DNA of 64,000 nucleotides from Phoronis australis. Its lineage: Eukaryota > Animalia > Phoronida. Both the position numbers and the translations under genes were made by a program. The stretch covers positions 82,069 through 146,068 of the forward strand of contig NMRA01000506.1 in NCBI GenBank assembly GCA_002633005.1, read 5' to 3'. The number at the start of each line of letters is the position of its first letter. The first letter of the stretch is position 1. Below are positions 35,018-45,804 of this stretch, piece by piece. Below the pieces are notes generated by a model, which saw only the letters and a list, made by a program, of their open reading frames with translations, did not search any database and was not told where the DNA came from.

Positions 35018-35175
35018 TCAGCAAATATTGTTACTGATATCACACTGGTTTTCTGTAAGTTCAGCGTCCATGTGAATGAACTTCGTCAGATGCGTGAACC
35101 AGATCCCAAGATGTCGCAACTTAGGTATGAAGGAGACCAAGTCACTCAGACGGTTAGACTTCTTTCCAATTTTAC
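35018..35175 (-). CDS. 2DBD-NR: 2DBD-NR last coding exon: LBD helices 10/11 and stop
   Basis: Encodes (R)KIGKKSNRLSDLVSFIPKLRHLGIWFTHLTKFIHMDAELTENQCDISNNIC*. Acceptor ctttcag; TGA at 35020-35018. Confidence 0.86.
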
Positions 35176-44100: not shown

Positions 44101-45804
44101 ATAAAGACATTGTTCTTCATTATCGCAAAGAGCATTGGTCGGTTATAGTATTGAGCGCCAACGTGAGAGCGAGCACTGCTACGGAATTACGGGAGCTAGG
44201 ACTGGAAGGAAGGTAGTGACAGAAGCTTAAGTTGTCTACATCTCGACTAAAGGCTGAAAGTTGAATAGTTTGCTCCATCCAATGTTTGTTTATACTCTCA
44301 TGACCTCAATGTTGTATACTTACAGTGTTGGACTCAACACATAACCTAATAGAATGCGATACACTACAACAGAACATACCTTTTCGGCACATTCCAGCCA
44401 CCAGGCAGCGCTGAAAGCGACAGTACTGACACCGATGGCGTATTGGTCCTGGATAACCGCAGTTGATATCGTTCTGGCATTTAAGTCTCGTCGGCTCGCC
44501 TTCTTTGGTACAGCGAATGAAAAAACTCTAAAAAGAAAAGGCGAGAGCTGCCGGAACTACTGAACAACAAGAGAGGAAGTGTTTTCAAACGCTTTAAAAG
44601 CCACATGCATGTCACATAATTGAATTGATTTCTTAATGAATTCTTACAATGAAACAACGTGCAAGGTTTCTCTGTACTGTATTTTGCATAACAAATTTTT
44701 TCATTAAGTTCATTAATGGCCAAGACCTTGTTCTTGTTGCCACCATTATCTTAAACCATGCAAGTTCTCATGTTGGCCATACTGTGTGCAACATAAATAA
44801 AAAACAACCGTACTTGGCGTCATGTAAACTAAACAGACAGGAAACTTGGTTTTGCATTTTTACTAAAGAGCTCACACGCTACTGGGAGGTAGTTCAAACA
44901 TTGTTAAAGCGAGATAATCTCTCTGAGTTCCATTTTAAACAAAAATAATAGCTGAAATCGCAATGGCTAGTAATATTGTTACTTAAAAAGTTAAAAATCA
45001 GGAAAGCCATCTCGTTCAAACTGTAGGCAGTGATGAAGTTAAAGTTAATTTTTGAGAAATTATTACAAAATAAAGTTCCACACCTCCGTCACTGTGAGGT
45101 ACATCAAATATTACCGTAGATTTCACTGCCCAATAACCAGATGGGTCACAACACTAAAAGGTCAGACTGACTAATGACAGATCATATAGAGGCAAGCTCA
45201 CATATTTCTCACCTTGCACGGCAAGCATACGATGGCACCGAAGTACATGCCGCTGGCATCAGCTCCGCACACGCTACACCCCTTGGTCTGCAATGACCGC
45301 TTCAAGTTCCCCTCAATTTCCTCCTCAGCTTTGATTTTTTCCACAATTCCCTTAACCATGGCCGTCTCATTGAGAGGAGGTAAGGCTTTTCCCATGTCTT
45401 CTCTCAGATCATTGTCCGAGGTCACCATGTCCACCACGTCACATTGAGTAGACAGCACACCCCTGTCATCAGTTAATTCCTGATGTTGCACACCATTTGC
45501 CGGGACAGTATGTAACTGGGTTTCCATGGTATCTCTCTTGTCGTTGTCAATGACGTTAACATCGTCTATTTGCACTGGGGACGGATGCAACACATCTGGG
45601 ACTGATGGCAATCCCTCGTAGCGGAGGTCGATATCTGGTAGCGACAAGGGCGAGCCACTGAAGGGCGACATACATCCATCACGGTCGCTGCAAGTTCCAT
45701 CAGTCACAAAGCTGATAGAACTGGTATCACTGGCTGCGAGTTCAAGAGTCACATTTCGTCTAGGACTGTAGTCAATGGGAGCTTCTTGATCAGCACTGCT
45801 ATTA
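35018..45804 (-). CDS. 2DBD-NR: nuclear receptor with two DNA-binding domains (2DBD-NR, CLPCKS-CEGCKK type); complement(join(35018..35175,35534..35614,37548..37808,38216..38309,39036..40090,42161..42302,42905..43011,44380..44527,45213..45804)); 5' end not located
   Basis: DBD1 is CSVCGADASGMYFGAIVCLPCKSFFIRCTKEGEPTRLKCQNDINCGYPGPIRHRCQYCRFQRCLVAGM. DBD2 is [66 protein letters not shown]. C-terminal extension SRDAIKMGRPKK. LBD signature FATRIPGFCNLCREDQMILLK. All 8 introns are GT-AG with matching phases. Confidence 0.93.
35534..35614 (-). CDS. 2DBD-NR: 2DBD-NR exon: LBD helix 9
   Basis: Encodes (D)YLELTDTDKIHKLYSMMLKALDAYVY. Acceptor atttcag; donor C|GTAAGT. Confidence 0.88.
35728..37249. mobile_element. 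~1.5-kb non-autonomous DNA transposon with TA TSD (Tc1/mariner-like) in 2DBD-NR intron
   Basis: TA|CCCTATTCGCCATAATAACCGCCCA ... TGGGCGGTTATTACGGCAAATATAG|TA. Subterminal GGGCGCTTA-type repeats at both ends, CpG-rich interior, no transposase ORF. Confidence 0.75.
37548..37808 (-). CDS. 2DBD-NR: 2DBD-NR exon: LBD helices 4-8
   Basis: Encodes (G)FCNLCREDQMILLKYGSFQIGMV...MDDTEASMLCSLILLSE. Acceptor ccctag; donor G|GTACGT. Confidence 0.92.
38216..38309 (-). CDS. 2DBD-NR: 2DBD-NR exon: LBD helix 3 region
   Basis: Encodes DKMSSFGVITGIQQGIVPNNEAQLWFATRIP(G). Acceptor tttatag; donor G|GTATGT. Confidence 0.87.
39036..40090 (-). CDS. 2DBD-NR: 2DBD-NR exon: C-terminal extension plus long hinge (about 351 codons)
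   Basis: Encodes (A)IKMGRPKK...LLLDLRKQSQR, matching ORF 38967..40082. Acceptor tttgtag; donor AGG|GTTGGT chosen by phase match to the next exon. Confidence 0.88.
42161..42302 (-). CDS. 2DBD-NR: 2DBD-NR exon: second zinc finger of DBD2
   Basis: Encodes [47 protein letters not shown]. Acceptor cttag; donor G|GTGAGT. Confidence 0.94.
42905..43011 (-). CDS. 2DBD-NR: 2DBD-NR exon: inter-DBD linker plus first zinc finger of DBD2 (P-box CEGCK)
   Basis: Encodes (E)[35 protein letters not shown]. Acceptor is a (TTTG)n tract plus caag; donor AAG|GTTGGT. Confidence 0.92.
44380..44527 (-). CDS. 2DBD-NR: 2DBD-NR exon: second zinc finger of DBD1
   Basis: Encodes SFFIRCTKEGEPTRLKCQNDINCGYPGPIRHRCQYCRFQRCLVAGMCRK. 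Acceptor ttttag; donor G|GTATGT. Not in the ORF track. Confidence 0.93.
45213..45804 (-). CDS. 2DBD-NR: 2DBD-NR exon: acidic A/B region plus first zinc finger of DBD1 (P-box CLPCK)
   Basis: Within ORF 45198..45821. Acceptor atttcag; donor AAG|GTGAGA, phase 0. Confidence 0.9.

Follow-up and report, generated by a model that had tools for sequence, protein, structure and literature searches.

Exon layout, expression and predicted DNA binding of a Phoronis nuclear receptor that has a pair of DNA-binding domains

Does the minus strand of a 64-kb stretch of Phoronis australis DNA (the whole stretch analysed, hereafter the window) encode one expressed nuclear receptor that carries two DNA-binding domains (DBDs), and if so, how might such a chain read DNA? 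A preliminary description had proposed that one polypeptide could read two half-sites as a covalently linked pseudo-dimer. As a gene discovery the locus is not new, because the sequence, its name and its P-box pair were published in 2023. Our additions are modest: an exon map, read evidence of expression and splicing in a phoronid, matching intron positions in the two DBDs, and losses of the AF-2 helix scattered over group B. The residue pattern of the DBDs also yields a concrete prediction for DNA binding by two-DBD receptors; the locus itself is no easier to work with than the oyster or snail orthologues.

Exon layout of the gene

Nine minus-strand exons join into a frame of 878 codons whose 5' end is open, with AG acceptors on all nine and GT donors on the first eight. 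The four DBD exons of the preliminary description lie where it had placed them, at AG/GT sites and with in-frame joins, and the layout that it drew (two complete C4 DBDs, a 17-aa linker, one hinge and one ligand-binding domain, LBD) is what the 878-aa frame contains. The features are as follows, in positions of the window.

45213..45804, minus strand: exon 1 in the window (an internal exon); codes for the A/B region and for DBD1 up to the LPCK P-box at the end of its first finger; phase-0 donor
44380..44527, minus strand: exon 2; DBD1 from the later part of its recognition helix through its second finger, then the first 3 linker residues; phase-1 donor
42905..43011, minus strand: exon 3; what is left of the 17-aa linker, then DBD2's first finger with the EGCK P-box; phase-0 donor
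42161..42302, minus strand: exon 4; remainder of DBD2; phase-1 donor
39036..40090, minus strand: exon 5; G-box KMGRP, then a hinge some 318 aa long and the LBD's beginning, in the region of helix 1
38216..38309, minus strand: exon 6; LBD helix 3 and start of the Ti signature; both flanking joints present in reads and in an X1 contig
37548..37808, minus strand: exon 7; LBD helices 4-8; Hormone_recep match and read joints
35534..35614, minus strand: exon 8; LBD helix 9; agrees with the published protein
35018..35175, minus strand: coding part of exon 9; helices 10/11 and a 26-residue tail; stop codon TGA at 35020-35018
34237..35017 (end approximate), minus strand: 3' untranslated region; gene-strand depth 10-16; 5 X4 molecules begin at 34237
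43007..43043, no strand: TTTG microsatellite, which provides the acceptor of exon 3 with its pyrimidine tract

DBD1 starts at 45278, within exon 1, and DBD2 at 42970, within exon 3, whose acceptor is an AAG preceded by the TTTG repeat.

Identity and group membership

Compared by eye, both DBDs (68 + 66 = 134 aa) are identical to the Pau2DBD-NRB row (Phoronis australis) of S2 in PMC10497141, and LBD residues 701-849 (149 aa) are identical to the Pa2DBD-NRB row of S5 in the same paper. Judged from sequence, then, the window carries the published Pa2DBD-NRB gene or the gene of a near-identical phoronid, with the P-P module and the G-box common to both and no difference seen; both the gene and its pair of P-boxes have thus been published already (Wu and LoVerde 2023, PMC10497141). 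After the published row, the best of the other relatives recovered has 74% identity over the DBDs. That paper was the only one found in a literature search for a Phoronis 2DBD nuclear receptor, and its available portions give Pa2DBD-NRB neither an accession nor an exon map nor expression data; the protein is also absent from its Ti and AF-2 files.

The preliminary description had assigned the receptor to the branch of the oyster 2DBD-delta type, and this assignment agrees with the literature, in which 2DBD-NRB is described with the P-P module LPCKS-EGCKK. The module was first seen in oyster Cg2DBD-delta and is given for Mollusca, Annelida, Brachiopoda and Phoronida, together with a G-box of the form KXGR(P/H) (PMC10497141). 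The published tree puts the identical sequence within NRB, and Class I LBD residues and homodimer formation are described for the 2DBD-NRB group (PMC10497141). Membership in 2DBD-NRA was considered and rejected, since the protein has neither the EACKK-EGCKG module nor the RXGRQ G-box.

Relatives, phylogeny and a stand-in structure

A query with exon 2 returned one candidate, from Nucella, and a wider search from the Nucella match gave 50 proteins of 107 candidates. These 50 come from molluscs, annelids, Lingula and echinoderms, and none of them is named as a phoronid protein. The two-DBD pattern fits 46 of the 50; the other four, which are partial, enter neither the tallies nor the tree. In the 47-row tree, which holds NRB proteins only and no NRA outgroup, the Phoronis protein has a long branch, and its position there lacks support.

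Cg2DBD-delta (Cg2DBD-NRB1) and the other bivalve 2DBD-NRB1 proteins (PMC4070562, PMC5041327) share the LPCKS/EGCKK P-boxes and the 17-aa linker with the Phoronis receptor, at 71-74% identity over the two DBDs. They differ from it in the LBD, where identity falls to 23-31%, and in that most bivalve proteins have an AF-2-like tail. La2DBD-NRB of Lingula anatina (P0039) has the same layout of two zf-C4 domains and Hormone_recep, is one of the two best LBD matches, and likewise lacks an AF-2-like tail. However, its first P-box is LACKS, its identity to the Phoronis protein is 65% over the DBDs and 29% over the LBD, and the two are joined in the tree by unsupported long branches. The flatworm 2DBD-NRA proteins Sm2DBD-alpha and Eg2DBD-alpha (PMC1810520, PMC6844482) have the module EACKK-EGCKG, a G-box RXGRQ and a retained AF-2; homodimers have been shown for flatworm proteins.

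A predicted model of the Lingula protein served as a structural stand-in. Its linker (residues 95-111) has a pLDDT of about 87-94 and the whole chain a pTM of 0.46, and high local pLDDT does not fix the orientation of the domains. The modelled LBD has an NR1-like fold, nearest to LXR and VDR, and its last helix (863-880, helix 10/11) is followed by a tail predicted to be unstructured. Among the best 60 of 88 PDB sequence matches, no solved structure is named as a two-DBD receptor. As for where such receptors are used, the oyster orthologue is expressed at late developmental stages (PMC5041327) and the Lymnaea orthologue in gastrula cells (PMC11589774), which point to development.

Transcription and splicing

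The RNA data consist of three raw runs from one study (X2, X3 and X4), about a fifth of each being read, and one set of contigs (X1). Reads cross six of the eight introns, and all of them are oriented as a minus-strand gene requires. Two of the four joints predicted around the DBD exons were recovered in all three runs: 45213/44527, with 22, 23 and 12 reads in X2, X3 and X4, and 42161/40090, with 19, 12 and 10. The joint 42905/42302 was recovered in X2 and X4 (10 reads each) but had none in X3. The joints of the LBD have 14, 14 and 13 reads (exon 5 to exon 6), 12, 19 and 10 (exon 6 to exon 7) and 10, 8 and 10 (37548/35614), in the same order of runs. The join 35534/35175 exists in the published protein; 15 of the 64 read joints are listed, and it is not among these.

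The fourth predicted joint, 44380/43011, leads from DBD1 to DBD2. Its acceptor lies inside the TTTG repeat at 43007-43043, which was masked from read mapping, and the joint is missing from the list for this reason. Filtering removed a single joint row at this repeat, though most rows removed in this way are false. The joint has indirect support: when 15 AG sites near exon 3 were tried, six kept the frame and 43011 alone yielded the 17-aa linker that 45 of the 46 relatives share. The exon layout, the transcription, six of the eight introns and the identity to the published sequence are all but certain; the gene is expressed and spliced, and its two DBDs are probably carried by a single chain.

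Could the two DBD exon pairs instead be used alternatively, so that the locus makes mainly single-DBD receptors, or could there be two genes? The exon phases match, and skipping of exons 2 and 3 (255 nt) or of exons 3 and 4 (249 nt) would therefore stay in frame. The joint between exons 2 and 3 is not displayed, and in X3 exons 3 and 4 have depths of 5.6 and 8.2 against 23.7 for exon 2, although such dips in depth are no finding by themselves. Against this, the joint 45213/42302 is not listed even though it would have been detectable, the single dropped joint row falls exactly on the exon 3 acceptor repeat, and exon 3 is about as deep in X2 and X4 as exon 2, which has a read depth of about 19-28. 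Moreover, 46 relatives have both DBDs with a near-identical linker, and a separate gene would lack both a start codon and an LBD of its own. We consider alternative use of the pairs, or two genes, very improbable. A minor form that joins exon 2 to exon 5, with at most 10 reads in X3, is possible.

The low X3 depth over 42905-43011 and 42161-42302, where the exon 3/exon 4 joint is unlisted, may reflect a filter artefact or a DBD1-only isoform. Within intron 1 (44528-45212), gene-strand reads reach a depth of about 3-6 in X2 and X3 and are absent from X4; almost none fall in introns 2 and 3. Intron 1, which lies inside DBD1, may be retained or spliced slowly.

The position 45804, which had been taken as the boundary of the gene, is a splice acceptor and not the gene start. 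Nineteen X2 reads pass the exon 1 acceptor (window 45806 and upstream) into other sequence. Exact matching and matching that allowed as many as 3 mismatches did not find this sequence in the 64-kb window, which puts the first exon somewhere else. The loose part of these reads is short, at a median of 33 letters where ordinary joints have 60-68; this suggests a small first exon at a distance of over 18 kb, a gap in the assembly or a spliced leader. At the other end of the gene, an X1 contig spans 34307-35032 unspliced. Over this part of the 3' UTR, X2 and X3 agree with the window, but X1 and X4 depart from it at many sites (27 letters plus 22 gaps over 738 in the X1 contig), which we read as high allelic or population divergence.

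The two DNA-binding domains

Two zf-C4 matches had been expected from Pfam, and two complete domains were indeed found, one on exons 1 and 2 and the other on exons 3 and 4. In the former, profile positions 2-25 match exon 1 (E 0.0046, which alone is under the curated cut-off) and positions 25-69 match exon 2 (E 5.6e-7); in the latter, positions 2-25 match exon 3 (E 8.4e-9) and 26-70 exon 4 (E 2.6e-13). The pattern C-X2-C-X13-C-X2-C followed by C-X5-C-X9-C-X2-C is present twice, with all eight cysteines of DBD1 kept at canonical spacing. Across six frames of the window there are four finger patterns of the nuclear receptor type, all within the receptor gene; in 30 shuffles there were 0.2 on average and never more than 2.

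The linker between the DBDs is 17 aa long, inside the range of 17-22 residues for the 2DBD-NR subfamily. Its length is the same in 46 of 47 rows (45 of the 46 relatives and the Phoronis protein), and the linker sequences of the relatives are closely similar. Five residues after DBD2 stands a G-box, KMGRP, which fits the KXGR(P/H) of 2DBD-NRB; there is none after DBD1.

In RXR, Glu153, Lys156, Lys160 and Arg161 touch bases (PMC4314640); the equivalent positions in the Phoronis helices were identified by sequence alignment. All four base readers (Glu, Lys, a basic residue and Arg) are retained in the recognition helix of the Phoronis DBD2, whereas that of DBD1 has Leu for Glu and Ile for the basic residue and retains only Lys and Arg. 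The same division is seen across the 47 two-DBD rows. In DBD2, Glu and Lys are present in all 47 and Arg-Arg in 46. In DBD1, Lys and Arg are likewise present in all 47, while Glu is found in only six, all from echinoderms, and a basic residue at +7 in none.

The ligand-binding domain and its C-terminal tail

Hormone_recep gave a weak match on exon 7 (E 0.0015), under the cut-off, and the Ti signature of an LBD agrees with the consensus at 8 of 9 positions, the exception being a Thr at the K/R/E/G position. In the 26 residues after the helix-11 Trp of the Phoronis protein we found no AF-2/helix-12 motif. An AF-2-like motif is also absent from the Lingula, Lamellibrachia and Potamilus proteins and from most gastropods, and is clear in echinoderms and most bivalves. 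In a tally of 34 rows, 17 have the motif and 17 do not; the pattern used is loose, with a likely false match in Littorina, two Diadema rows were left out, and many of the relatives are gene predictions. Several relatives end 13-20 residues past the helix-11 Trp. Since the 26-residue tail of the Phoronis protein is as long as that of relatives that bear an AF-2, a degenerate helix 12 is possible.

In PMC10497141 an AF2-AD core is given for most 2DBD-NRs, and the AF-2 file has only seven NRB proteins, five from echinoderms and two from oysters. Because its authors nevertheless class the Phoronis gene as NRB, an AF-2 is not needed for membership in the group. Several 2DBD-NRB models in the databases (P0012, P0013, P0001, P0002 and P0006, from scallops and some gastropods) show no LBD end in the alignment, being either truncated gene models or genuine LBD-less forms.

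A proposed mode of DNA binding and output

How might two such different DBDs act on one chain? We propose, at about even chances of being right, that their DNA site is asymmetric and in two parts, with DBD2 in the lead, and that the receptor represses transcription. DBD2, with its four base readers and the G-box, would likely read an AGGTCA-like half-site with its 5' flank, and DBD1, with Leu and Ile substituted but Lys and Arg kept, would likely grip an adjacent half-site that is different or loosely specified. In direct-repeat dimers of RXR, the T-box of the 3' domain packs against the second finger of the 5' domain (PMC4314640). By likeness to that T-box, the fixed 17-aa linker with its T-box-like start probably keeps the Phoronis domains head to tail with DBD1 on the 3' side. 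An LBD without helix 12 would be expected to bind corepressors over coactivators, and it may also homodimerise, as in flatworm 2DBD-NRA proteins. Our working analogue is Rev-erb (NR1D), which also lacks helix 12, has a G-box after its DBD and represses constitutively (bioRxiv 2020.05.05.079277); by this analogy, repression would be the likelier output for the Phoronis receptor. Rev-erb differs in that it has a single DBD and binds heme (bioRxiv 2020.05.05.079277). In the literature searched, which consisted of non-subscription texts, we found no binding, reporter or ligand data for any 2DBD-NRB, and no functional work on these proteins or mention of helix-12 loss in them. Results from flatworms count against the proposed mechanism: the schistosome DBD1, DBD2 and DBD1+2 did not bind AGGTCA repeats spaced 1-6 in EMSA (Wu 2007, PMC1810520), although DBD2 of that NRA protein has a canonical P-box.

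The idea of the preliminary description, in which both DBDs are full and equal readers and a single chain works as a covalent dimer on a pair of half-sites, or its extension to a homodimer on four, is favoured by the intact cysteines and the canonical spacing of DBD1, by a DBD1 P-box that is almost invariant over four phyla and by the fixed linker length. Multi-half-site binding was proposed in 2007 (PMC1810520), and binding through four DBDs in both 2007 and 2023 (Wu; PMC1810520, PMC10497141). However, two of the RXR base readers, the Glu and the basic residue at +7, are missing from the DBD1 helix, a point against two half-site readers of equal standing; the negative schistosome EMSA also speaks against it, as does a model of the Echinococcus protein in which only one DBD reads bases (Alvite 2019, PMC6844482). 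We therefore regard two equal readers as unlikely. At the other extreme, DBD1 might read no sequence at all and act as a protein-contact or stabilising module, with DBD2 and the G-box binding as a monomer in the manner of Rev-erb or ROR. The hydrophobic substitutions on the DBD1 helix, the Pro in its P-box and the placement of the G-box behind DBD2 only would suit such a role, and Alvite 2019 took one DBD to be merely stabilising (PMC6844482). Yet the helix Lys and Arg are kept in every one of the 47 rows, as a DNA contact face would require, and we judge a passive DBD1 to be improbable as well.

The receptor might instead be a ligand-controlled activator or work in a dual mode, the absent AF-2 motif reflecting divergence and not loss of function. 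We think this doubtful, but it has several points in its favour: the Ti signature, the complete LBD fold predicted for the Lingula stand-in, the AF-2-like tails kept in bivalve and echinoderm members, and the fatty acids proposed as ligands for the Echinococcus NRA protein (PMC6844482). The long A/B and hinge regions could also carry activation functions. On the other hand, the last 26 residues of the Phoronis protein lack the hydrophobic pattern of a helix 12, and there are the relatives that stop within 20 residues of the helix-11 Trp. A bolder version of the repressor reading, which we offer tentatively, is that lophotrochozoan 2DBD-NRB proteins outside bivalves are Rev-erb-like constitutive repressors without helix 12 that bind as intramolecular direct-repeat dimers, with DBD1 on a half-site unique among nuclear receptors; since the exon pairs of the two DBDs match in phase, in-frame skipping could also switch them to forms with a single or a chimeric DBD.

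Origin of the two domains

Both DBDs are interrupted in the same way: an intron of phase 0 follows the Lys of the P-box, and one of phase 1 comes three residues beyond the closing Gly-Met. The equal positions fit a tandem duplication of one exon pair; since such intron sites are common in NR1 genes, however, capture of a pair from a related gene is also possible. A tandem duplication of an exon pair agrees with the recombination origin of the two DBDs proposed in 2007. Equal intron positions in 2DBD genes are not described in the available portions of the 2007 paper or of PMC8363021.

Genomic neighbourhood

Pfam gave no match for eight other long frames in the window or for the last coding exon of the receptor. 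On the plus strand, at 22310-27139, lies a gene of the 3-beta-hydroxysteroid dehydrogenase family (Pfam 3Beta_HSD, E 3e-34 and 3.9e-7), tail to tail with the receptor and about 7 kb from its 3' end. Intron 7 of the receptor gene contains a transcribed multi-copy repeat (35900-37250) with deep, divergent reads on both strands, and repeats that resemble it occur near 46000-46340, 48000-48900 and 51100-53000.
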